The notes below the pieces were generated by a model that worked only from the letters and a program-made list of their open reading frames with translations, was not told where the DNA came from and did not search any database. From Halomicrobium mukohataei DSM 12286 (GTDB taxonomy: Archaea; Halobacteriota; Halobacteria; Halobacteriales; Haloarculaceae): a stretch of 32,000 nt of DNA. A program made the translations under genes and the position numbers. The stretch is taken from positions 2,700,001 through 2,732,000 of the forward strand of contig NC_013202.1 of NCBI RefSeq assembly GCF_000023965.1. Reading direction: 5' to 3'. This document shows, piece after piece, positions 3,049 to 25,579 of the stretch (position 1 is its first letter; each line of letters opens with the position of its first letter).

Positions 3049-4215
3049 TCACTGGACGGCCGCGAGCGCCTCGTCCATGATCGACAGCGCCTCTTTCAGC
3101 GTCTCCACGTCGACGGGGTACGAGATTCGGGCGTAGCCCGCGCCCTGGGCACCGAAGGCCTCACCGGGGACGACGACGACGCCACGCTCGATGCACTCGT
3201 CGACGAACCCGTCGGGCACCTTCGGCATCGCGTAGAAGGCACCTTCGGGCGTGGGACACTCCAGTCCGATGTCTTCGAGGCCGTCGAGCAACACGTCACG
3301 ACGCTGCTCGAAGGCGGCCCGCATCTCCTCGACAACGTCCTGAGGTCCCGACAGGGCCGCTTCGGCCGCGAACTGGGCGGGCGCGCTCGCACAGGCCTGT
3401 GCGTACTGGTGGACCCGCAGCATGCGCTCGATGCGGTCGCTGGCACCCGTGACCCAGCCCAGCCGCCAGCCGGTCATCGAGTAGCTCTTCGAGCAGGCGT
3501 TGACGACGACGACGTTGCCGCCGTCGTCGAATTCGGCGGGACTGCGGTGCTCGCCCTCGAAGACGATGTGCTCGTACACCTCGTCGGAGAGACAGAGCAC
3601 GTCGTGCTCGTCTGCGATCCGGGCGAACGCGCGCATGTCGTCGGGCGACTGGACCGCGCCGGTCGGATTGGCCGGGCTGTTGACGATGAAGGCGGCGGTG
3701 TCGTCGGTGATCGCTTCCTCGACGGTCGCCGGGTCGAGCGTCAGATCGTCCCGCAGCGGGACCGGCTTGGGCGTCCCGCCAGCGAGGTGGGTCAGCGCGT
3801 CGTAGGAGACGAAGCCGGGGTCGGGGAAGATCACTTCCTGGCCCGCGTTGTCGGACTGTGTCCGATCGCTCCCGGGACTGTGTCCCGGGCCGTCGACGTG
3901 GGCCTCCAGCGCGATGTGCAGCGCCTCGCTGCCGCCCGAGGTGGCGATCACGTTCTCGGGGTCCACGTCCATGCCGTTGTCTCGCGCGTGCTTGTCCGCG
4001 ATGGCTTCCCGCAGCTCGCGGGTCCCCTTGTTCGACGTGTAGGCGTCTGCTTTCCCCGCCTGGATCGCCTCGACCGCCGCCTGGCGGGCGTGGTCTGGCG
4101 TCGGGAAGTCCGGCTGGCCCAGCCCGAGATTGATCGCGTCCTCACCTGCGGCCTCGAAGACCTCTCGGATCCCCGAGATCGACACCTGCTCGACTCGACG
4201 GGAGAACTCTGTCAT
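3049..4215 (-). CDS. pyridoxal-phosphate-dependent aminotransferase, class I/II (aspartate aminotransferase-like, 388 aa)
   Basis: PLP-lysine motif NACSKSYSMTGWRLGW, plus NSPANPTG and an overall AspC-like layout. ATG at 4213-4215. Confidence 0.9.
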   Translation of the reverse strand: MTEFSRRVEQVSISGIREVFEAAGEDAINLGLGQPDFPTPDHARQAAVEAIQAGKADAYTSNKGTRELREAIADKHARDNGMDVDPENVIATSGGSEALHIALEAHVDGPGHSPGSDRTQSDNAGQEVIFPDPGFVSYDALTHLAGGTPKPVPLRDDLTLDPATVEEAITDDTAAFIVNSPANPTGAVQSPDDMRAFARIADEHDVLCLSDEVYEHIVFEGEHRSPAEFDDGGNVVVVNACSKSYSMTGWRLGWVTGASDRIERMLRVHQYAQACASAPAQFAAEAALSGPQDVVEEMRAAFEQRRDVLLDGLEDIGLECPTPEGAFYAMPKVPDGFVDECIERGVVVVPGEAFGAQGAGYARISYPVDVETLKEALSIMDEALAAVQ

Positions 4216-9343: not shown

Positions 9344-10077
9344 TGGAACATCCCGAGCGGCTTCGCGCTCGTGGACTCGTCGTTTGCCTGCTGCATCTGT
9401 GCAGCCAGGTCCGCCTTCGCCTCGCTGATCTCCTCGGCGTGCTCGACCAGTGCCTCAGTGTCGATGTCGATTCCCGCGAGGGGCTGGACGCCATCTTCCA
9501 GGACGACGCGGGCCGCCGCCGGATCCGGGAACTGCTTGTCGGCATCGACGACGAGCCCGACGCTGTCGAGGCCCTGACGCTGTGCGGCGTAGAGCAGGGC
9601 ACCGGTCGGGCCGGTGACCGCGCCGTCGATCGTCGGCGCGCCGATGTCGGCCGCAGAGAGCAGCGCCTTCCCGTCACCGGTCCCGACACCGTACATCGAC
9701 GCCGTCCCCTCGCGCTTGGCCGGCATCCCGCTGAGGTAGATCGGCGTCACGTCGTTGTCGGCCAGCCAGCCCGTCAAGCAGGTAGCGAACTCGTCGGCGG
9801 TGCTCGGCGAGACCGGCGCGTCGCTCTGGAGGACGAGCAGATCCCGCTCCGCGTCGGCGTAGAGCCTGACCGGCGGCTTGAGCTGCTGGTCGCCCTGTCG
9901 GTAGACGGCGATCTCCGGGAGCCCGTCGCAGTGGATCGAGGCGTACTCGGTCATCTCGAAGGTCTCGACCAGGTGATCGGCCGCGATCTTGCCGACCAGC
10001 CCGACCCCCGGAAGCCCCTCGACGAGCGTCGGCGATTCCAGCGCGAGGTCGTCACGGTGGACTGCAATGTGTGCCAT
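9340..10077 (-). CDS. proteasome assembly chaperone (PAC2)-family protein, COG1938-like (245 aa)
   Basis: The ATG at 10075-10077 gives MAHIAVHRDDLALESPTLVEGLPGVGLVGKIAADHL, typical of archaeal PAC2-like proteins. The track extension to 10353 is Arg/Ser-rich. Confidence 0.75.
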   Translation of the reverse strand: MAHIAVHRDDLALESPTLVEGLPGVGLVGKIAADHLVETFEMTEYASIHCDGLPEIAVYRQGDQQLKPPVRLYADAERDLLVLQSDAPVSPSTADEFATCLTGWLADNDVTPIYLSGMPAKREGTASMYGVGTGDGKALLSAADIGAPTIDGAVTGPTGALLYAAQRQGLDSVGLVVDADKQFPDPAAARVVLEDGVQPLAGIDIDTEALVEHAEEISEAKADLAAQMQQANDESTSAKPLGMFQ

Positions 10078-10201
10078 ACCCGAATACAGCGCGTCCGTGG
10101 AGTTAACAGTCGGGGGCGGCCGTCGACTCGGCGATCGCCTCGGCCGCCCAGAGCGACCCACTCCGAAACAGACAAGCGTGCGACCGCTATACGCACCGCC
10201 A

Positions 10202-11119
10202 ATGGACGTTCTGGAGCGGTACGAACCGCTGATCGATGATTTTTCGGCGTTCCGCGACGCCTGCGCGCGCCCGCTCCCGCCGGTCGTTCGAGTCAACACG
10301 CTCAAGACGACCGTCGACCGGGCCATCCGGGCGCTGCGAGACGAGGGCATCACCGTCGAACGGACCGACTGGCACGAGGGGCTCCTGGAACTGCCCGACG
10401 ATCAGCCGGGGGCGAACTGGCCGTACTTCCACGGCTGGATCTACGGACAGGAAGAAGTCTCGGCCGTGCCCGTCCGCGTCCTCGGTCCAGAGCCCGGCGA
10501 GCGGATCTGGGACGCCTGTGCCGCGCCGGGGAGCAAGACCTCACAGATCGCGGCCCGACAGGGCGACGACGGCGTCGTCGTGGCGACCGACTCCAACCTC
10601 GGCCGCCTCTCGGCGCTGCGGACCAACACCGAACAGCTGGGCATCACCAGCGTCGCCGTCACCCACGAGGACGCCCGCAACCACTCGCTGAAGCCGTTCG
10701 GGGACGACGACAGTGCCGAGTACGACCGCGCGCTCGTGGACGTGCCCTGTTCGTGCGAGGGGACGGTCCGCAAGAACCCGGACACGCTCGACGAGTGGAC
10801 CCTCGAACACGTCGAGGGCATCGCCGGTGTCCAGAAGGGCGTGCTCCGGCGCGCGATCCAGACCACGAAGCCCGGCGGGACGGTCGTCTACTCGACGTGT
10901 ACGTTCGCGCCCGAGGAGAACGAGGCGGTGCTCGACTACGCGCTCGAAACGGAGGCGTGCCGACTCGTCCCCTTCGAGATCCCGCTGGCCTCGACGGGCG
11001 GCGTCACGGAGTGGCAGGGCGAATCCTACGACGACAGCGTCCGGCAGGCCCACCGGATCTACCCCCACCACAACGACACCGGCGGGTTCTTCTGCGCGAA
11101 ACTGGAGGTCACAGCATGA
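10202..11119 (+). CDS. NOL1/NOP2/Sun-family RNA cytosine-C5 methyltransferase (305 aa)
   Basis: The ATG at 10202 gives MDVLERYEPLIDDF. SAM-binding motif DACAAPGSKT, and catalytic motifs DVPCSCEGT and YSTCT. Confidence 0.9.
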   Translation: MDVLERYEPLIDDFSAFRDACARPLPPVVRVNTLKTTVDRAIRALRDEGITVERTDWHEGLLELPDDQPGANWPYFHGWIYGQEEVSAVPVRVLGPEPGERIWDACAAPGSKTSQIAARQGDDGVVVATDSNLGRLSALRTNTEQLGITSVAVTHEDARNHSLKPFGDDDSAEYDRALVDVPCSCEGTVRKNPDTLDEWTLEHVEGIAGVQKGVLRRAIQTTKPGGTVVYSTCTFAPEENEAVLDYALETEACRLVPFEIPLASTGGVTEWQGESYDDSVRQAHRIYPHHNDTGGFFCAKLEVTA

Positions 11120-11616
11120 CCCACGGCGACGTGACCTTCGACCGGGTGCCGGCCGACGACGCGGCCCGCGAGGACCCCGACGCGCCGACGCGCGAGGAGA
11201 TTCTGGACTACTGGCCCGACCGGTTCGCCATTCCCCGCGAGGTGTTCGAACCCTACACCTTCTGGGAGCGTGGCAACGGCAAGATCTGGCTGTTCCGCGG
11301 CGAGGCACCCGACACGGTCCCCATCCAGGGGCTCGGCATGACGTTCCTGCGCACTCGCCAGGAGTTCTGGAAGCCGACGACCGACGCCGTCCAGCGCTTT
11401 GGCGGCCACGCGAGCGAGAACGTCCTCCACCTCGACCGGGACGCCGCCCGCGCCTTCGTCGCGGGCGAGGACCAGGAGATCGAGTGGGACGGCGACTGGG
11501 GCTATCTCATCGTCACCCACGACATCGCCGGGGCGACCGAACCCCTCGGCGTCGGCCTGTACACCTACGGCGAACTCAAGACACAGGTCGCCAAGGGTCG
11601 CCAGCGAGAGCTGTAA
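11116..11616 (+). CDS. small protein translationally coupled to the m5C methyltransferase (166 aa), probably a PUA-like accessory domain protein
   Basis: The ATG at 11116-11118 overlaps the TGA at 11117-11119 (ATGA). Sequence MTHGDVTFDRVPADDAAREDPDAPTREEILDYWPDRF...GLYTYGELKTQVAKG. Function is inferred from the coupling only. Confidence 0.65.
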   Translation: MTHGDVTFDRVPADDAAREDPDAPTREEILDYWPDRFAIPREVFEPYTFWERGNGKIWLFRGEAPDTVPIQGLGMTFLRTRQEFWKPTTDAVQRFGGHASENVLHLDRDAARAFVAGEDQEIEWDGDWGYLIVTHDIAGATEPLGVGLYTYGELKTQVAKGRQREL

Positions 11617-11682
11617 CGGACGGTTTACTGGGGTCGTCGCTCGACTGCTGCACACCACAATCCACCAGATGACCGAGATGGA

Positions 11683-11712
11683 TTCATGTTAGAAGCTGTT
11701 TCGGGCTAGTAT
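11683..11712 (+). promoter_or_regulatory. TTC PAM (11683-11685) plus partial protospacer for the crRNA-like element at 12064-12150; candidate Cascade-binding operator
   Basis: 11686-11706 ATGTTAGAAGCTGTTTCGGGC matches pseudo-spacer positions 1-21 (ATGTTCGAAGCTGTTGCGGGC), with mismatches only at positions 6 and 16. Positions 22-26 do not match. A TATA-like TATTAAGT at 11710-11717 abuts the 3' end. Confidence 0.5.
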
Positions 11713-11754
11713 TAAGTAGGTGGGGCCACATGGTTGAACTGACGCGTCAGCGTC

Positions 11755-11800
11755 CGTAATCAGAGCATCACCCCGTCCAAAGAGAGATGCCCTGATTACG
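11755..11800. repeat. 15-bp inverted repeat (14 bp plus one A.C mismatch) with a 16-nt loop: strong hairpin
   Basis: CGTAATCAGAGCATC (11755-11769) and GATGCCCTGATTACG (11786-11800), read directly from the sequence. Confidence 0.85.
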
Positions 11801-11903
11801 CCGAAAACCGAGCAATGAAACTCACTCGGGCTGCGTTGGCAGCGAGCTAACGTATGTGTCGGTCCGATTTAGGGGTTTGGTTGCTCCAGCGAGAGGCTTC
11901 ACT

Positions 11904-12020
11904 ATGAACCGACCAAGCACACGACCCGACATCCGGCCGACGTTGAACTGGATCGAACGATCACACATCCGTGACGAGAAGGCGGACGTGAAGACAGACG
12001 AAGACAGGCAAAACAACTAA
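11904..12020 (+). CDS. candidate small ORF (38 aa) in the low-GC islet; speculative
   Basis: ATG at 11904, preceded by SD-like GAGAGG (11891-11896) with a 7-nt spacer. Product MNRPSTRPDIRPTLNWIERSHIRDEKADVKTDEDRQNN. It is rich in A-ending codons (CGA, CCA, ACA, TCA, CAA) that are atypical for this genome. It falls below the ORF-track length cutoff. Confidence 0.2.
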   Translation: MNRPSTRPDIRPTLNWIERSHIRDEKADVKTDEDRQNN

Positions 12021-12063
12021 ATCGATTTCTCCTCTCTCCAAACATGCCCGTAGTACAGTCGAA

Positions 12064-12150
12064 TTTTCAGTCGGACGCTGGTGCCGTTGAAGCATGTTCG
12101 AAGCTGTTGCGGGCACTGCTGTTTCAGCTGGACCCTTTTGGGTTCATATT
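12064..12150 (+). ncRNA. crRNA-like mini-array psiR1-psiS-psiR2 (CreA/CreR-type regulatory RNA gene candidate)
   Basis: psiR1 12064-12093 matches the array repeat at 23/30, including GTTGAAGC against the ATTGAAGC 5' handle. psiS 12094-12120 is 27 nt. psiR2 12121-12150 matches at 21/30 (19/22 over the 3'-handle part). The orientation is the same as the cas operon and the array. Confidence 0.6.
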
Positions 12151-12169
12151 CATCATCACCACGATTACA

Positions 12170-12177
12170 TTTATATA
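12170..12177 (+). promoter_or_regulatory. TATA box TTTATATA, probable cas6/cas operon promoter
   Basis: This is the best TATA-like element in the region. It lies 20 nt after psiR2 and about 62 nt upstream of the cas6 ATG. SD-like AGGGAG at 12225-12230 sits 8 nt before the ATG at 12239. Confidence 0.45.
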
Positions 12178-12238
12178 GAATCGTTCGGTTGTGAGTATCA
12201 CAATGACACAAAATGACACGAAGTAGGGAGTACAACGG

Positions 12239-13042
12239 ATGCGAGTGATCGCACATCTGCAAGCACGTGCCGATACGGCGTACGACGCGACGTATCACCA
12301 CAAGCTTCGAGGGCGTCTCTGGGACGCTCTCGACGGGACGGCGTACGAGTCGCTGCACGACGAGAACCGTCCGAAGGGGTTCACGTACTCGAACCCGTTT
12401 CCGCCGGGAAACATGCGCGAGGGCGACGAGAAGACGTTGCTCGTCGCCTCGCCACACGAAGAGTTACTCGCCCACGTCGCGGCCGACCTCAAACTCGACC
12501 GCGAGCTGAACATCGGGGAGATGCCCTTCCACGTCGACGCGGTCAACGGGCTGGCGACCGACGTGGGCGAACCGGGCACGTCGGGGACGATCGAGACCGG
12601 AACGGGGGTCCTGGTCCGGATTCCGCCGTGGCGGTTCGAGGAGTACGGCATCGACACCGACCACGACGAGGCCGAGTTTTGGCGGCCGGAGCACACGATG
12701 GAGCCGTTCCGGAACCAGATCGAGAACAACCTCGACAAGAAACACGGACTGTTCTGTCAGGAGTACCAGCCCGGGCCGTCGGAGACCGACGGCGATCTGT
12801 TCGAGGGCGCGGATCTGATCAAGACGTTCTCGATTCCGGTGACGGTCACGCAGGGCCAGCGCGAGACGTGGGTGTTGAGCAAGTGGCGATTCGACTACAC
12901 CGTCCGCGACGACCACCACCGCCGCCACCTGAATCTGGCGCTGGACACCGGGCTCGGCGAGCGCAACTCGCTGGGCTTCGGATTCGTCAACATCACCGAG
13001 AAGGACGGTCGCCAGCCCGGAACGGAGGACATCGATGCTTGA
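12239..13042 (+). CDS. cas6b: CRISPR endoribonuclease Cas6 (type I-B, 267 aa)
   Basis: First gene of the cas operon. C-terminal glycine-rich loop GLGERNSLGFGFV, typical of Cas6. The stop overlaps the cas8b start. Confidence 0.9.
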   Translation: MRVIAHLQARADTAYDATYHHKLRGRLWDALDGTAYESLHDENRPKGFTYSNPFPPGNMREGDEKTLLVASPHEELLAHVAADLKLDRELNIGEMPFHVDAVNGLATDVGEPGTSGTIETGTGVLVRIPPWRFEEYGIDTDHDEAEFWRPEHTMEPFRNQIENNLDKKHGLFCQEYQPGPSETDGDLFEGADLIKTFSIPVTVTQGQRETWVLSKWRFDYTVRDDHHRRHLNLALDTGLGERNSLGFGFVNITEKDGRQPGTEDIDA

Positions 13043-15140
13043 TCCCGACGAGTTCTACGATGAGTATCCGCCCGAGAAGCTCGAAGACGAGCTCCCCGAG
13101 CGACCGATCTCGTCGCTGCGGGACATCCAGCACCTCTACGGGCGACTCTACACGCTGGCGACGGCCGGCGGCGGCGACTACGCGGCCTATCTGACGCCCG
13201 ATCAGGCCAACGATCTGATCGGGACAGAGGAGAGCCTGATCGCCGTCTGCGTCGATCTGTCCGGAGAGCGGCCGACGCTCGACGCGGAGGAACCCGTCCG
13301 GGTGACCCAGTACACCGACGACCTGGTACAGCGGGTCGCTCACTGCAAGTACAACGCGGCGCGGGGGATCGACCACAGCGTCACGCACCGCTCCGGACGC
13401 AACAGCGATCCCGAGAAACTGGCCCGGTACGCCTGCGAGCGGCTGACGAAGTGGGCGACCGACGACGTGGTCCAGAGCATCGCAGACGATCACCCCGACG
13501 GCGACGTGATCCGCGGACTGGCGACCGTCGGCGAGGACGAGAACGCCCTCGACAGGATTCGAGAGGCCGTCCAGACCGAGCTCGGCGGTTCGACGACAGC
13601 GCTCCTCACCGTGCAGGTGCGCCGGGAGGAGGGCGGCGAGTACGAGTGGCCGGGACAGATTTCCGTGTTCGACGAAGCGATGCGTGCGCGGAAGCTCTCG
13701 AAGCTCGTCTCGAAGGGGCAGGCGACGAACTCTGCCGGCGAGGCGACGGATCTCGTCAGCGGCGAACGGACGCGAACCGTCGGCACCGCCGAGGATCCGC
13801 TCAACTACTTCCTGGGCAAGCAAATGGAGAAGTTCCCGGGGCTGGATCCCGACGAGGCCTGGCGGAGCCACCCCATCTCCGAGGACGGCGCGGTCACGCT
13901 GATGAACGCCGAGGAGTTCGTCGACGCCTGTTCCTACCGGACGTTCAACGCCGACGTGTATTACCTCCCGTACTTCCTCGGACGACCGACGCCCGAAGAG
14001 ACGTACAAGCTGTACGCGGCACTCCACAGAGTCACACGGGACGACGACATGAATCCGGTTCAGGCGCTCTACGACGAGTTCGGCGACCACGAGGCGGCGC
14101 CCGAGGGGCGACTGCGCTTCTACGTCGCGGCGGTGATGAAACACCAGATGTCCCGATTCGACGTGTACGGCGAGACGCTGAACGGCCGGATCCACTACCC
14201 GACCGAGGTCGGGCAGCGACACGAGCAGGTGACCGGCAGCTGGGTCTTCGACGAGGACGACGCCAGGAACGGAGGTCGGACGCCGCCGATGCCCTCCCAC
14301 GAAGAGTGGGCGCTCACTAATTACCAGCGGTTTCGAGAGATGGTCGCGTCGGGTGCCTATCTCTACGGCACCTTCCCGTTCACCGACGAGGACACCGACG
14401 CGACGGTCGACGACGAGCGAATCGACGTTCACGTCTCGATCCTTGCCGGCGATCCCGTCCCGCGGAACCAACTGGTCAGCGCCTACGTCGATCGATTGCT
14501 CGACCGTGACGGTGACGAAGTCCCCGAACTCCTGATCGCCTCCCAGTTCGCACAGCTGTGCGCGCTGGAAAACGCCGGCCTCGTGACGACGGACGCCGGC
14601 GAGACCGAACCGACGCTGATCGACGGCCCCGATTACGACACTATGGAACCAGAACACGCGCGAACCGACGGCGGCACTGCTGCCCTCGATCGCACCGAGA
14701 AACTCGAATCGTTCATCGAACAGACGGACGGACTGGACGACGCCGAACGGAAGGGAGCATTCCTGCTCGGCACGCTCGTCGGCCAGGTCGGCACCTACCA
14801 GCAGGGGTATCACGATCGATCGACGACCGTCATCGACCAGTACCCGATCAAGTCGATGACCAAGACGAAGATCAAGCGCATCACCCAAGAGGTGATCGAC
14901 AAAGACGTAGTCTACTCCCGGGAGATGGCCAAGAAAGGGTCGGAGATCAATTCGACGATGTACAAGGAAGTTACGAACGCCATCGTCGAGACCATGGCCG
15001 AAAGCGATCCGTCGGACTGGGAGATCAGCACCGACGATCTGCGCTTCTACTACGCCCTGGGACTGACCTACGGAATGAACGACCGATCGACTAACGAGAA
15101 CGACGCTGCCGACGACGAAACCTCAGAAACCAATGAGTGA
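13035..15140 (+). CDS. cas8b: Cas8b (Csh1) large subunit of type I-B Cascade (701 aa)
   Basis: Called from position (between cas6 and cas7), size, acidic haloarchaeal composition and coupling by overlaps at both ends. No search was possible. Confidence 0.8.
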   Translation: MLDPDEFYDEYPPEKLEDELPERPISSLRDIQHLYGRLYTLATAGGGDYAAYLTPDQANDLIGTEESLIAVCVDLSGERPTLDAEEPVRVTQYTDDLVQRVAHCKYNAARGIDHSVTHRSGRNSDPEKLARYACERLTKWATDDVVQSIADDHPDGDVIRGLATVGEDENALDRIREAVQTELGGSTTALLTVQVRREEGGEYEWPGQISVFDEAMRARKLSKLVSKGQATNSAGEATDLVSGERTRTVGTAEDPLNYFLGKQMEKFPGLDPDEAWRSHPISEDGAVTLMNAEEFVDACSYRTFNADVYYLPYFLGRPTPEETYKLYAALHRVTRDDDMNPVQALYDEFGDHEAAPEGRLRFYVAAVMKHQMSRFDVYGETLNGRIHYPTEVGQRHEQVTGSWVFDEDDARNGGRTPPMPSHEEWALTNYQRFREMVASGAYLYGTFPFTDEDTDATVDDERIDVHVSILAGDPVPRNQLVSAYVDRLLDRDGDEVPELLIASQFAQLCALENAGLVTTDAGETEPTLIDGPDYDTMEPEHARTDGGTAALDRTEKLESFIEQTDGLDDAERKGAFLLGTLVGQVGTYQQGYHDRSTTVIDQYPIKSMTKTKIKRITQEVIDKDVVYSREMAKKGSEINSTMYKEVTNAIVETMAESDPSDWEISTDDLRFYYALGLTYGMNDRSTNENDAADDETSETNE

Positions 15141-21369: not shown

Positions 21370-21530
21370 ACTACCCTACCCTACTCGCACACGGCTGACA
21401 CCGTTCGCTCCTTGAGGGTAGGGCTTCCTGATTCGACGACGCGCTTTGCAGATATATGTGTATCCACAGGGAGCGCAGTCTCCACAGGCGTTGATTCGAA
21501 GTATCCCACTCCTACGTTTTCGAGGCCGCG
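21370..21530 (-). ncRNA. predicted TnpB omega/right-end RNA scaffold overlapping the tnpB 3' end (extent approximate)
   Basis: From established knowledge, TnpB guide RNAs derive from the tnpB 3' end plus RE. The sequence shows a 9-bp stem CCCTACCCT/AGGGTAGGG bracketing the stop codon. No transcript evidence is available. Confidence 0.3.
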
Positions 21531-22622
21531 AGAAAGAATGTTCCACGCTGCGTTCGCGTCCCTGTCCGCCTCGAACCCGCAGGCGGGACAGGAGTGTTCA
21601 CGGACCCACAACGGCTTCTCCGTCGAGACGCCACATGACGCGCATTTCTTGGTCGTCCCTCTCGGGTTGACCGCCACGAAGTGCGTCCCTTCGCGCTCAC
21701 ACTTGTATTCGAGCAACGAGAGGAACGTCCGCCACGCGGCGGAGGCGGTGTTGCGGCTGTTCGACGGCGACTCCATCATCCCCTTCACATTCAGGTCCTC
21801 GACCGCCACAAGGTCGTACTCCCGAGCGTAGTAGTTCGACAACTTATGCAGGAAGTCGCGGCGCTTCCGTCGGAGGTCGGCGTAATACTTCGCGACTCGC
21901 CGCCGTTGCTTCTCGTAGCTGTTCGACCCGTGTTGTTTTTGCGAGAGCTTCCGTTGCTCACGTTCCAAGCGTTCGCGTTCGTCGGTGAGGTCGAGCGACC
22001 CGACTGCTGTACCGTCGGTGTCGTGAGCGTACTTGCAAATCCCCACGTCGATACCGACGCACTTCTCGGGATTCTCAGGTGGCTCGGGAGGTTCACGATC
22101 CATTTCGACACCGAACGTGGCGAACCACTCGCCCGTCGGTTCCTTCTTGACTGTGACCTGCTTGAGCGTGGCGTCGTTGGGGATGGCGCGGTGAAGCCGA
22201 ATCGGTATGTCCGCGAGTTTCGAGAGTGACAGGACAGTCTGACCGCCCTTCTTGTCGAGCTTGAAACCAGACTGACTGTACGTGAAACTGCGGAACTCCC
22301 GTGGCGGCTTCCACTTGAGTTGGCCAACGCCGTAGCCGTTCTTCTTGAGCTTGGAGAGGCCTTTGAGGTTGTCAAACAGGCGTTCCACGACGGTTTGGAG
22401 AACCTTCGAATACACGTCGTTGAGGTCGTCCCACCACTTTTTGAGGTCGGGGAGCTCCGACCGAAGCGTGGTCATGGACGGCAGTTCACCGTGTTCATCT
22501 TGGTACTCGTTGAGGCGGTAGAGCGTGTGGTTGTACAGCTGCCTACAAATATTGCGGTGTCGGTCCAACTCCTCTCGGTGGGCGTCGGACGGCTTGAGAC
22601 GGTACTTGTAGGCGTAGTACAT
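21381..22622 (-). CDS. tnpB: TnpB (IS1341/OrfB-type RNA-guided nuclease, 413 aa)
   Basis: N-terminus MYYAYKYRLKPS. RuvC-like residues in IDVGICKY, VAVEDLNVKGM and ADRDANAAWNI. Zn finger CASCG...CPACG. Confidence 0.95.
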   Translation of the reverse strand: MYYAYKYRLKPSDAHREELDRHRNICRQLYNHTLYRLNEYQDEHGELPSMTTLRSELPDLKKWWDDLNDVYSKVLQTVVERLFDNLKGLSKLKKNGYGVGQLKWKPPREFRSFTYSQSGFKLDKKGGQTVLSLSKLADIPIRLHRAIPNDATLKQVTVKKEPTGEWFATFGVEMDREPPEPPENPEKCVGIDVGICKYAHDTDGTAVGSLDLTDERERLEREQRKLSQKQHGSNSYEKQRRRVAKYYADLRRKRRDFLHKLSNYYAREYDLVAVEDLNVKGMMESPSNSRNTASAAWRTFLSLLEYKCEREGTHFVAVNPRGTTKKCASCGVSTEKPLWVREHSCPACGFEADRDANAAWNILSRGLENVGVGYFESTPVETALPVDTHISAKRVVESGSPTLKERTVSAVCE

Positions 22623-22623
22623 T

Positions 22624-23028
22624 CTACTCGCGTTGGTCCTCGACGTACTGTTTCAACACATCCAGCGACACCTGCCCCGTCGAGATGAGGCAGTACGAGT
22701 CGTTCCAGAACGAGTCACCCCACAGTTCGGTTTTCAGTTCGTCCGCGTACTCGTTGCGGATACGGCGGGCGGTTGCGCCCTTGACCGTGTTGATGAACTT
22801 CACAAGGTCCGTGGTTGGTTTCGCTCGGAACAGGATGTGCACGTGGTCGTCCTCGCCGTCGAGGTTCGTCAGTTCGACACCGTAGTTGTCCGTGAACCCG
22901 CTGATGACCTCGTGAATGAATTGGGTTCGCTCCTCGGTTAGCACTCCGCGCCGGTATTTCGTGGTGAGTATCAGGTGGTAGTGCAGGGAAAACGTCGAGT
23001 GCGCTCCCGAGTCGAGGTCGTACTCCAT
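22624..23028 (-). CDS. tnpA: TnpA Y1 (HUH) transposase of IS200/IS605 (134 aa)
   Basis: HUH motif DDHVHILF and catalytic Tyr region WNDSYCLISTG. Typical size. Confidence 0.95.
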   Translation of the reverse strand: MEYDLDSGAHSTFSLHYHLILTTKYRRGVLTEERTQFIHEVISGFTDNYGVELTNLDGEDDHVHILFRAKPTTDLVKFINTVKGATARRIRNEYADELKTELWGDSFWNDSYCLISTGQVSLDVLKQYVEDQRE

Positions 23029-23381: not shown

Positions 23382-25579
23382 GTTTCAGACGGACCCTTGT
23401 GGGATTGAAGCTGCGTCGTCCGGTGGCCGTCAATAAATGTCGCAAGGGGTTTCAGACGGACCCTTGTGGGATTGAAGCTCCTACGACCTCGTCGGCGTCA
23501 ACGGCTGGCCCGAGTTTCAGACGGACCCTTGTGGGATTGAAGCCACCCTACAACAGGTGAAATCTACCAGACAAAAGAGTTTCAGACGGACCCTTGTGGG
23601 ATTGAAGCTCACCCAAGCGCAAGCAACAGCTGATCGAGGACCTGGTTTCAGACGGACCCTTGTGGGATTGAAGCGCGACGGCGGCCAGTTCCGCGAGGGC
23701 GGGAAGGTCCGTTTCAGACGGACCCTTGTGGGATTGAAGCTGCGAGTGTTGCGGGGAACCGACTCGGGTAGGCCAGGTTTCAGACGGACCCTTGTGGGAT
23801 TGAAGCACGGTTTCGCTACCACCATCGCCACCAGCAACTGCCGGTTTCAGACGGACCCTTGTGGGATTGAAGCGACGAGTATGCCAACCGGCTCGTGAGC
23901 GGGCGCGTTTCAGACGGACCCTTGTGGGATTGAAGCTGGTAGGCGTCGTAGGTGTTCGTGGCGAGCGTGTCGTTTCAGACGGACCCTTGTGGGATTGAAG
24001 CACTCACTGGATTATGACCCCTACAACGAGGGCGTCAGTTTCAGACGGACCCTTGTGGGATTGAAGCGGATCTCGATCGTTGTAGTATCCATAGCTGCTA
24101 TACCGTTTCAGACGGACCCTTGTGGGATTGAAGCGAAGTAACGCAACTCCAGTGAGCGCTACTGAGAGCCCGTTTCAGACGGACCCTTGTGGGATTGAAG
24201 CCCGATCACGCCCTGCCGATACTGGTAGTTCGCGATAGTTTCAGACGGACCCTTGTGGGATTGAAGCTCGTCGGCCGGCTCGTCGGCCGACGTGGACTTG
24301 CGTTTCAGACGGACCCTTGTGGGATTGAAGCAGTAGGTCTAATGTCTCTCTGTCGTCTATCAGCCCCGGTTTCAGACGGACCCTTGTGGGATTGAAGCGC
24401 TCTCCGGTGTCACAGGTCAGGTCACGGTCTCCGCGTTTCAGACGGACCCTTGTGGGATTGAAGCACGGACAAGTCATCCACCCGCCAGTATCTCCCGGTG
24501 TTTCAGACGGACCCTTGTGGGATTGAAGCAAATACGATCCTGCGGTGACGCTACGTCCGGGGCAGCGTTTCAGACGGACCCTTGTGGGATTGAAGCCAGA
24601 TGTGGGGTCTGTGGCCACAGTCTAACATCTCTGTTTCAGACGGACCCTTGTGGGATTGAAGCCCTGATAACGGACTCTTGTAGGTCCGTTAGGTCGTGTT
24701 TCAGACGGACCCTTGTGGGATTGAAGCAAAAATGAGTGACGTAGACATTCGGCAAAATGCCGGGTTTCAGACGGACCCTTGTGGGATTGAAGCCAGCAGC
24801 GAAACGAGCCGTCCGTCCTTTTGAGACAGTTTCAGACGGACCCTTGTGGGATTGAAGCGTCTAGCCCAGTCTGGTCGGGGTGGTCGGCAGGATCGGGTTT
24901 CAGACGGACCCTTGTGGGATTGAAGCCACTCCTCATATGTCTGTTCGAGCAGCGGGACGTGGTTTCAGACGGACCCTTGTGGGATTGAAGCACCGTTGCC
25001 GCCGATCGGCAGCGAGCCGGTGATGTGTGTTTCAGACGGACCCTTGTGGGATTGAAGCTCAAAGCGAGCCTCGAACGCGACGACGAAGATATGGTTTCAG
25101 ACGGACCCTTGTGGGATTGAAGCTCCTCCTTGTACCCACGGTCTTGCCGATCCATCCCGGTTTCAGATGGACCCTTGTGGGATTGAAGCGACTGGCGTGT
25201 TGCCGTTCAGGCCGGCGTTGATCCCGGTTTCAGACGGACCCTTGTGGGATTGAAGCCTCAGCAGCAGTCAACGGCATTTTATACACCTTGTGTTTCAGAC
25301 GGACCCTTGTGGGATTGAAGCCACCCCTTCCGGGGAGACGAGGAAACCCCGGACGAGTTTCAGACGGACCCTTGTGGGATTGAAGCGTCACGCTGTCTGA
25401 CGATATGGCTGACCAGGTGCGTTTCAGACGGACCCTTGTGGGATTGAAGCCACTCCTGGGCGGCCTCATCGGCGGCCATCGTCGTTTCAGACGGACTCTT
25501 GTGGGATTGAAGCGTTGTGTGAGGTATGCGATGGACACCACCGATCACGGTTTCAGACGGACCCTTGTGGGACCCGGCA
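23382..25579 (+). CRISPR. CRISPR array: 34 repeats of 30 nt (GTTTCAGACGGACCCTTGTGGGATTGAAGC), 33 spacers of 33-38 nt
   Basis: Repeat starts are 23382, 23449, 23514, 23579, 23645, 23711, 23777, 23844, 23907, 23972, 24038, 24105, 24172, 24238, 24302, 24369, 24435, 24500, 24567, 24633, 24698, 24764, 24829, 24897, 24962, 25029, 25094, 25160, 25227, 25292, 25357, 25421, 25484 and 25550. Variants are repeat 28 (C9T), repeat 33 (C14T) and repeat 34, which matches only over its first 23 nt (25550-25572). The repeat differs by 1 nt from the remembered Haloferax volcanii I-B repeat. Confidence 0.98.

Follow-up and report, generated by a model that had tools for sequence, protein, structure and literature searches.

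In the CreTA ('CRISPR addiction') modules described for haloarchaea, Cascade guided by the CRISPR-RNA-like CreA represses the promoter of a toxin gene, creT. The toxins of Haloarcula hispanica (AGA-AGA) and Halobacterium hubeiense (AUA-AUA) sequester a tRNA through tandem rare codons, whereas four of six haloarchaeal CreT toxins have no rare-codon mini-open reading frame (mini-ORF) and hence another mode of action (PMC8501985). No rare-codon ORF was found in the creT genes of Halomicrobium mukohataei and three other haloarchaea, 'suggesting distinct toxicity mechanisms' (Cheng et al. 2021, PMC8501985). Here we analyzed a 32,000-nucleotide stretch of the H. mukohataei DSM 12286 genome (NC_013202.1, positions 2,700,001 to 2,732,000, forward strand), hereafter called the window, and within it the A/T-rich islet at 11617-12063, upstream of cas6. 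The islet is the toxin half of the already published H. mukohataei CreTA module, the existence of which is not new. What is added is a concrete candidate for the mechanism of those haloarchaeal CreT toxins that do not sequester tRNA, a conserved reading frame of 34 to 38 codons (ORF38) that may encode a toxic micropeptide.

Identity of the islet and its relatives

The published amplicon was located by its primers: Hmuk-TAL-F (CGGACGGTTTACTGGGGT) matched 11617-11634 exactly, and the reverse complement of Hmuk-TAL-R (CCGTTGTACTCCCTACTT) matched 12221-12238 exactly (Table S2 of PMC9458426). The psiR-replacement primers of the same study contain the window's sequences at 12044-12063 and of psiR1, psiS and psiR2. 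Because both the primers and the psiR sequences match, the islet is the portion of the cloned H. mukohataei creTA other than creA. A plasmid with H. mukohataei creT lowered the transformation of H. hispanica about 10^4-fold (Cheng et al. 2022, PMC9458426). The H. mukohataei creA gave no rescue in H. hispanica, the Cas6 of which does not process the degenerate repeats, and toxicity was relieved in wild-type H. hispanica with high Cascade levels when psiR1 was replaced so that it could be processed (PMC9458426). The original prediction, made from the sequence of the islet, of a Cascade-repressed cargo that renders the loss of Cascade costly agrees with this toxicity and relief on the same DNA. 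We consider the islet almost certainly to be the Cascade-repressed toxin cassette of a CreTA module. The creT genes of H. mukohataei and Natrinema sp. J7-2 were treated in PMC8501985 and PMC9458426 as uncharacterised RNAs, and the H. mukohataei creT is the DNA analyzed here. Neither paper mentions homology between the two, a 34-38-codon ORF or a two-hairpin leader, and among the papers searched no later one dissecting the toxicity of H. mukohataei creT was found.

Relatives were sampled in 37 cas6-anchored loci from species genomes and by protein and metagenome searches. Two of the 37 loci, from Haloplanus sp. C73 (L006) and Natrinema gari (L007), carried a homologue of 11749-12234 at about 76% identity; further homologues came from the protein and metagenome searches, namely L038, L039 (to which L040 is identical) and L042, which is partial. 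These modules are alignable from the protospacer-adjacent motif (PAM) to cas6 at about 75% identity and lie, without exception, directly upstream of cas6. Common to them are the TTC PAM, a covarying protospacer, a TATA-like box, two hairpins (HP1 and HP2), the 34-38-codon ORF and creA. The published primers for Natrinema sp. J7-2 creTA mapped to L007 at 3266-3956, the forward primer exactly and the reverse primer with one mismatch, and the L007 module is homologous to that of the window over about 480 nt, with the ORF and the two hairpins among the shared parts. The H. mukohataei and Natrinema modules, separate in the literature, therefore form one family. This fits the finding that they behaved identically, both requiring high Cascade levels (Cheng et al. 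2022, PMC9458426). Neither the plasmid nor the viral collections held a homologue of the module.

Halomicrobium katesii DSM 19301 (L001) has a Cas6 99% identical to that of the window and the same upstream genes. At 3829-3924 of its locus, an unrelated 96-nt filler replaces 11623-12160, that is, the 538-nt creTA module, and from 12161 onward the two sequences are about 96% identical, the cas6 promoter and 5' untranslated region (UTR) being kept. Toxin region and creA are thus absent together and must have been gained or lost together, and the cas operon is independent of the module. H. mukohataei and H. katesii form a natural presence/absence pair in which the cost or benefit of the module can be studied.

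The crRNA-like gene and the TTC-flanked protospacer noted in the original prediction are both real. creA consists of the spacer-like psiS between two degenerate repeats and adjoins the cas genes. In its 5'-handle part, psiR1 shares 7 of 8 positions with the CRISPR repeat, and psiR2 shares 19 of 22 in its 3'-handle part. The two repeats were sub-threshold matches of the Rfam family CRISPR-DR24 and were the only Rfam matches in the module, with no RNA family for the leader. The TTC-flanked match to psiS (11683-11700) is the sole such site in 32 kb, with none expected from shuffled sequences. In the relatives from Haloplanus, Natrinema and L039, psiS and target covary at positions 1, 8, 10, 14 and 17; at position 1, guide and target are A/A in the window and T/T elsewhere. 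Position 6 is mismatched in every module, and positions 12 and 18 in most of them. Positions 6, 12 and 18 are those left unpaired by type I Cascade.

An A/T-rich box begins 3-5 nt past the matched part of the protospacer, and its aligned variants in the five homologues read TATTAAG, AATTATA, GTTATGT, ACTATGT and TTTTATA. From haloarchaeal promoter geometry, we infer that this box belongs to the repressed promoter P-creT, with a transcription start near 11738-11745. The PAM-flanked partial match would thus lie over a predicted toxin promoter. Between the box and the first hairpin, 10-30 nt are unconserved and variable in length. Upstream of psiR1, the motif CTAAAT could be a TATA box for a promoter of creA itself.

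A reading frame behind a structured leader

ORF38 begins 221 nt downstream of the PAM, and creA follows about 43 nt past its stop. Every one of the five full-length copies retains this ATG and TAA, and a 12-nt deletion in the Natrinema copy leaves the reading frame intact. The variable columns of the alignment fall 10, 10 and 20 on the first, second and third codon positions. The summed Nei-Gojobori ratio of nonsynonymous to synonymous substitution rates (dN/dS) was 0.24, the lowest among the six frames. With substitutions placed at random, 47 +/- 4.5 amino-acid differences were expected and 32 were observed (P ~0.001), and only 11% of the random placements left the frame without a stop. Four of the five full-length copies share an unchanged peptide core, TRPDIRPTLNWIERSH, although at least eight synonymous changes fall within it, and the fifth, L039, has ERPDIRPTWNWIERSH; the core motif can be written [RK]PD..PTL[ND]WI...H[IV][RH]. 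Codons ending in A make up 10 of 38 (26%), compared with 9.5% in nine reference genes of the window. Public protein data contained one identical 38-residue protein and one of 82-86% identity. The protein searches returned only P0001-P0003, and in protein and metagenome searches no relatives of ORF38 beyond its own small family were found. The last codons of ORF38 together with the nucleotides after them (CAAAACAACTAAATC) and CATGCCCGTAGTACAG just before psiR1 are conserved beyond coding need (12007-12063). A seawater contig (L041, 3001-3036) encodes PDIRPTLNWI, 10 identical residues, in a ACAACAAC-rich low-complexity region; it had been selected by the pattern and lacks the rest of the module, and the resemblance is probably due to chance.

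ORF38 was one of several translation-like signals listed in the original prediction. All motifs named there are found at their sites (AGGTG at 11718-11722, the hairpin 11755-11800, GAGAGG, GTG...TGA at 11971-11991 and the tandem at 11990-12009), but most of the signals are no more than chance would give and are unconserved in relatives. ORF38 alone has a start, stop and frame conserved in relatives. The mini-ORF proposed to start with the ATG at 11730 and end with the TAA at 11757-11759 (MVELTRQRP) was rejected: its ATG is absent in Haloplanus, the segment is deleted in Natrinema and L038, and it is situated past the TATA box but ahead of the likely transcription start. Likewise, the out-of-frame GTG ACG AGA AGG CGG ACG TGA, suggested for its tandem rare arginine codons, did not hold, AGG being lost in Haloplanus and the region deleted in Natrinema. 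ATG CCC TGA is present in the 3' arm of HP1, but its ATG is lost in Haloplanus, which makes it a weak candidate. The 10-nt tandem is real, but it codes for K-T-D-E-D-R within ORF38, occurs as a single copy in L042 and is unconserved.

The RNA upstream of ORF38 is predicted to be highly structured, its minimum free energy lying well below that of shuffled sequences (z = -3.6). The HP1 stem is conserved with almost no covariation. Since HP1 follows the TATA box at a variable distance (about 28-48 nt), it would be placed at or near the 5' end of the RNA. HP2 contains a near-invariant 30-nt block (11858-11887), in which the sole change is a G-to-A in L039, and its basal helix shows seven one-sided pair-preserving changes. 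In the five sequences the covariation of HP1 and HP2 was not significant, with one compensatory pair and shuffles performing as well; both structures are predicted rather than proven. GATTTAG at 11867-11873 lies in the invariant block about 30 nt before the ATG of ORF38, and L012, described below, has TAAATAT at a similar distance. The Shine-Dalgarno (SD)-like GAGAG at 11891-11895 and CUCUC at 12034-12038, past the stop of ORF38, are both invariant and were paired by RNAalifold; this pairing could mask the ribosome-binding site over a long range.

A comparable arrangement was found in a metagenome-assembled genome, L012 (minus strand, 1280-1771), in which a creA-like mini-array lies at the trailer end of a CRISPR array. 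Its leader has an 11-bp hairpin with a CCAAGG loop, followed by a long second stem-loop (z = -5.3). The ORF behind this leader is similar to ORF38 (shuffle P < 0.001; E = 6e-4 in the loci set), and psiR1-psiS-psiR2 begins 4 nt past its stop. It had no called relatives and no match in Pfam, PADLOC, NCBIfam, PHROG or PDB. A covariance model of the leader recovered the five training modules only and missed the leader of L012, which is therefore described as analogous, homology of the RNA being unproven. The same layout around a similar peptide motif supports, by analogy, the view of the ORF as the conserved cargo. By its sequence L012 is probably an undescribed CreTA/CrePA-like module.

Candidate toxic agents

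The arrangement suggests the following working of the module. Cas6 would cut CreA out of psiR1-psiS-psiR2, and CreA would be loaded into the type I-B Cascade. Bound to the partial protospacer 11686-11706, which abuts the TATA-like box, Cascade-CreA would occlude the TFB-recognition element (BRE) and TATA box and block initiation. Upon loss or inhibition of Cascade or Cas6, the promoter would fire and give a transcript that starts just before HP1 and continues through HP2, the weak SD and ORF38, probably on into creA as in H. hubeiense. The ORF38 product would then arrest growth, either as a free peptide or as a nascent chain on the ribosome, and the HP1/HP2 leader may serve RNA stability or translation control. 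That ORF38 is the toxic determinant appears evenly poised on the conservation described above. The more complete proposal is put forward tentatively, at slightly less than an even prospect: CreT of the H. mukohataei/Natrinema type would not be an RNA toxin but a micropeptide of 34-38 residues, free or ribosome-arresting as a nascent chain, made from a structured-leader mRNA that is repressed by CreA and Cascade.

Several observations weigh against a toxic peptide. The antisense -1 frame shares the wobble positions of ORF38 and gave nearly the same statistics (dN/dS 0.36, permutation P ~0.002); the coding test alone therefore leaves the strand unfixed. In L042 (1-128), the 10-nt unit GAAGACAGAC, present in two copies in the window (11990-12009), occurs once; the resulting frameshift affects the end of the ORF, which runs on into psiR1, and reflects either decay of the toxin or a mistake in the assembly. 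ORF38 had no match in Pfam, NCBIfam, PHROG, PADLOC or PDB, and AlphaFold, run on the single sequence, returned no secondary structure at a mean predicted local distance difference test (pLDDT) score of 68. The peptide is hydrophilic, unlike most small toxins, its SD is weak, and the family comprises only five or six sequences. GATTTAG could also be an unrepressed internal promoter giving a near-leaderless ORF38 mRNA, an unexpected arrangement for a toxin. Moreover, the nucleotides that vary least in the module, 11822-11834 and 11858-11887, are non-coding.

The RNA itself may be toxic, the HP1/HP2 region acting on an essential RNA or protein or AUG-CCC-UGA stalling ribosomes, with ORF38 accessory or incidental. 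We regard this as unlikely, while giving it appreciable weight on account of these invariant non-coding blocks and because every characterised CreT toxin of haloarchaea is an RNA. The folding of the leaders of the window and of L012, far better than that of shuffles, points the same way, as do the purine-rich stretch before AUG CCC UGA, its UGA end like that of known mini-ORFs, the Pro-stop mini-ORF toxins known in P. aeruginosa and the frameshift of ORF38 in L042, tolerated at the DNA level. A toxic RNA would, however, leave unexplained the coding signature of ORF38, its kept ATG and TAA and the in-frame indel. In Haloplanus the mini-ORF has AUA in place of its AUG, this codon is located within the stem, a single Pro codon follows it instead of two, the hairpins lack significant covariation, and no Rfam family matches. 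It is improbable that ORF38 is translated with an irrelevant peptide, its scarce codons (CCA, ACA, TTG, TCA and AGR-CAA) sequestering a rare tRNA. The many A-ending codons and the conserved AG(A/G)-CAA at codons 35-36 would suit such a role, and Cheng et al. 2021 raised the possibility of a 'longer ORF' (PMC8501985). On the other side, no two consecutive rare codons are identical, relatives exchange rare codons synonymously (CGA/CGC/CGG, TTG/CTG, TCA/TCG) with the amino acids fixed, variation is greatest in codons 2-5, next to the start, and no ORF of this kind was seen by the authors (PMC8501985). The tRNA-sequestering toxin envisaged in the original prediction fails for similar reasons: no tandem rare codons are conserved, and none were found by the authors (PMC8501985).

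A further reading, which we judge highly improbable, makes the antisense frame 11822-12016 (minus strand, 64 residues) the real gene and ORF38 its shadow. This frame is open over 64-88 codons in all five homologues and shows a similar depletion of amino-acid changes, but its start is not conserved (TTG in four, TCG in L039, with no conserved internal ATG) and its ends vary. The product is basic and rich in Ser and Cys, atypical for haloarchaea, and its replacements are slightly worse (mean BLOSUM62 -0.76 versus -0.47). It has no assigned promoter, whereas PAM, TATA box, hairpins and creA are all on the plus strand; in L012, stops occur in all three antisense frames and the plus-sense ORF has a strong SD. 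Most improbable of all, in our view, is the alternative, also raised in the original prediction, that the islet serves the cas operon as a long 5' leader or regulatory region, with CreA as a CreR-like cas autorepressor guarding no toxin. The constant position of the module next to cas6 would agree with it, as would the lack of a strong terminator before cas6, which makes read-through from the repressed promoter possible. Yet cas6 has a TATA box of its own, and H. katesii keeps cas6 with this promoter and 5' UTR at about 96% identity while lacking 11623-12160. About 485 nt separate the cas6 TATA box from the sole psiS target upstream of it, and the cloned fragment, carried on a plasmid, was toxic to a heterologous host, which is not expected of a mere leader (PMC9458426).

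A toxic ORF38 peptide would extend Cascade-controlled protein toxins beyond the bacterial type I-F and would supply haloarchaeal genetics and kill-switch design with a new growth-inhibiting micropeptide. Two of the four 'distinct mechanism' CreTs, those of H. mukohataei and Natrinema, form one family with a selected ORF and a two-hairpin leader, and a vague label thereby becomes a testable hypothesis.

Setting of the module and comparison with described systems

By ORF calls, Pfam and Rfam, the 32-kb window is a haloarchaeal type I-B CRISPR-Cas locus (Table 1). The upstream ORF and cas6 are 622 nt apart, and the islet takes up the first 447 nt of this gap. Its GC content of 0.535 is lower than that of the window as a whole (0.648), of the 1 kb upstream (0.685) and of cas6 (0.645); it places the islet in the bottom 2% of the window's 447-nt windows and bears out the A/T-richness described in the original prediction. 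Correct as well were the two minus-strand ORFs of at least 60 residues, one with a TTG start and one antisense to cas6. Three further frames extend from the upstream coding region into the islet, and none has its start within it. No tRNA or transfer-messenger RNA was found, and a sigma-70 promoter scan gave nothing, a promoter model that is not relevant to archaea. Between cas2 and the first CRISPR repeat (23382), where the leader is expected, lies an insertion sequence of the IS200/IS605 type (21381-23028), which might influence transcription of the array or adaptation. Among the sampled loci, solitary or paired degenerate repeats occur near cas6, either upstream of it or between cas6 and cas8, in L013, L015, L016, L017, L019, L022 and L037; these are presumably other creA- or creR-type elements with unrelated cargo. 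Halorubrum amylolyticum, the species of L019, is listed as a carrier of an H. hubeiense-type creTA (Cheng 2021, PMC8501985).

Table 1. Features of the creTA module and its surroundings in the window, and of the analogous locus L012 (L012 positions refer to that locus).
Feature	Position	Strand	Remarks
Whole intergenic segment	11617-12238	+	published 'H. mukohataei creTA' amplicon (toxin part, creA, cas6 promoter), by primer ends
TTC PAM (type I-B)	11683-11685	+	kept in 5/5 homologues covering the position
CreA protospacer	11686-11712	+	psiS match at positions 1-5, 7-15 and 17-21 (19 of first 21)
TATA-like box of putative repressed promoter P-creT	11710-11716	+	aligned A/T-rich box in 5/5 homologues
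HP1, 5'-proximal stem-loop (predicted)	11755-11800	+	stem ATCAG(G/A)GCA / TGCCCTGAT; loop CCAA(A/G)G
AUG CCC UGA	11787-11795	+	inside 3' arm of HP1
HP2, long stem-loop (predicted)	11810-11886	+	basal helix 11810-11823 with 11872-11886; RNAalifold
SD-like GAGAGG	11891-11896	+	7 nt before ATG of ORF38; GAGAG invariant in 5 homologues; presumed role
ORF38 (MNRPSTRPDIRPTLNWIERSHIRDEKADVKTDEDRQNN)	11904-12020	+	34-38-codon gene, proposed toxin determinant; conservation, dN/dS
psiR1	12064-12093	+	creA; identical to published sequence (PMC9458426)
psiS	12094-12120	+	spacer-like part of creA
psiR2	12121-12150	+	creA; identical to published sequence (PMC9458426)
TATA box of separate cas6 promoter (TTTATATA)	12170-12177	+	outside toxin cassette
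RsmB/F-type methyltransferase gene	9989-11119		upstream side of islet
ORF without assignment	3' end at 11616		directly upstream of islet
Spill-over frames from upstream coding region	10713-11672, 11399-11692	+	at least 60 residues
Spill-over frame from upstream coding region	11059-11658	-	at least 60 residues
ORF, 64 residues, TTG start	11822-12016	-	overlaps islet; at least 60 residues
ORF, GTG start	12017-12457	-	antisense to cas6; at least 60 residues
cas6	12239-13042		Pfam Cas6
cas8b	13035-15140		Cas_TM1802
Presumed cas7, cas5, cas3, cas4, cas1, cas2	to ~21369		collinear ORFs; position and size alone
TnpB-like ORF	21381-22622	-	OrfB_IS605 and Cas12f1-like TNB domain
Y1 TnpA	22624-23028	-	
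CRISPR array	23382-25513		33 repeat copies scored by Rfam; repeat GTTTCAGACGGACCCTTGTGGGATTGAAGC
L012 TTC-flanked target	1771-1748	-	16/21 matches; mismatches at 5, 6, 12, 14, 18; A/T-rich DNA
L012 ORF, 60 residues	1562-1380	-	SD GGGTGA; N-terminus KPD-PTLDWIRYGHVR
L012 psiR1	1375-1346	-	
L012 psiS	1345-1310	-	
L012 psiR2	1309-1280	-	

Compared with described systems, the locus differs from CreR, a guide that targets the cas-operon promoter without a linked toxin, in the distance of its sole target from the cas6 TATA box. The proline-codon CreT of Pseudomonas aeruginosa (bioRxiv 10.64898/2026.06.02.729485) has a Pro-stop mini-ORF by a stable hairpin, and AUG CCC UGA in HP1 resembles it. That toxin requires an SD, two Pro codons in a row and a hairpin further downstream, whereas here there is one Pro codon and the AUG is buried in the 3' arm of HP1. 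With the tRNA-sequestering CreT systems of H. hispanica and H. hubeiense, the module shares the type I-B setting, the TTC PAM and a partial match to psiS across the toxin promoter, which is a predicted one here. The H. hubeiense module resembles it further in being placed upstream of the cas operon, and its creT and creA are transcribed together. The psiS match covers 15-19 of 21 positions in the present family, compared with 10 seed nucleotides in H. hispanica and H. hubeiense. The tRNA-sequestering toxins have a mini-ORF of 4-6 codons with two identical rare codons, followed by a hairpin, whereas here the hairpins precede a 38-codon ORF. No mini-ORF with a strong SD and AUG and two identical rare codons is conserved in the module, and no conserved hairpin lies between ORF38 and psiR1. 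The amino-acid sequence of ORF38 appears to be under selection, unlike that of the mini-ORFs.

In organization, the module also resembles CrePA of Acinetobacter baylyi (type I-F; bioRxiv 10.1101/2024.01.05.574328), in which CreA guides repression of the promoter of a protein-coding ORF. A coding ORF is likewise found here beneath the promoter presumed to be repressed by CreA, although the antisense frame shows a similar signal. CreP of A. baylyi has 103 residues and a KilAC domain, is phage-derived and blocks cell division, whereas ORF38 has 34-38 residues and belongs to an archaeal type I-B locus. The searches of Pfam, NCBIfam, PHROG, PADLOC and PDB gave no KilAC or other family match, and ORF38 is therefore not a member of the CreP family by descent. 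The target lies about 120 bp from the ORF in A. baylyi and about 220 nt from it here, and the guide matches 18 of the first 19 positions there and 19 of the first 21 here. If the proposal for ORF38 is true, the module would be the first archaeal type I-B counterpart of CrePA, with a toxin family of its own.

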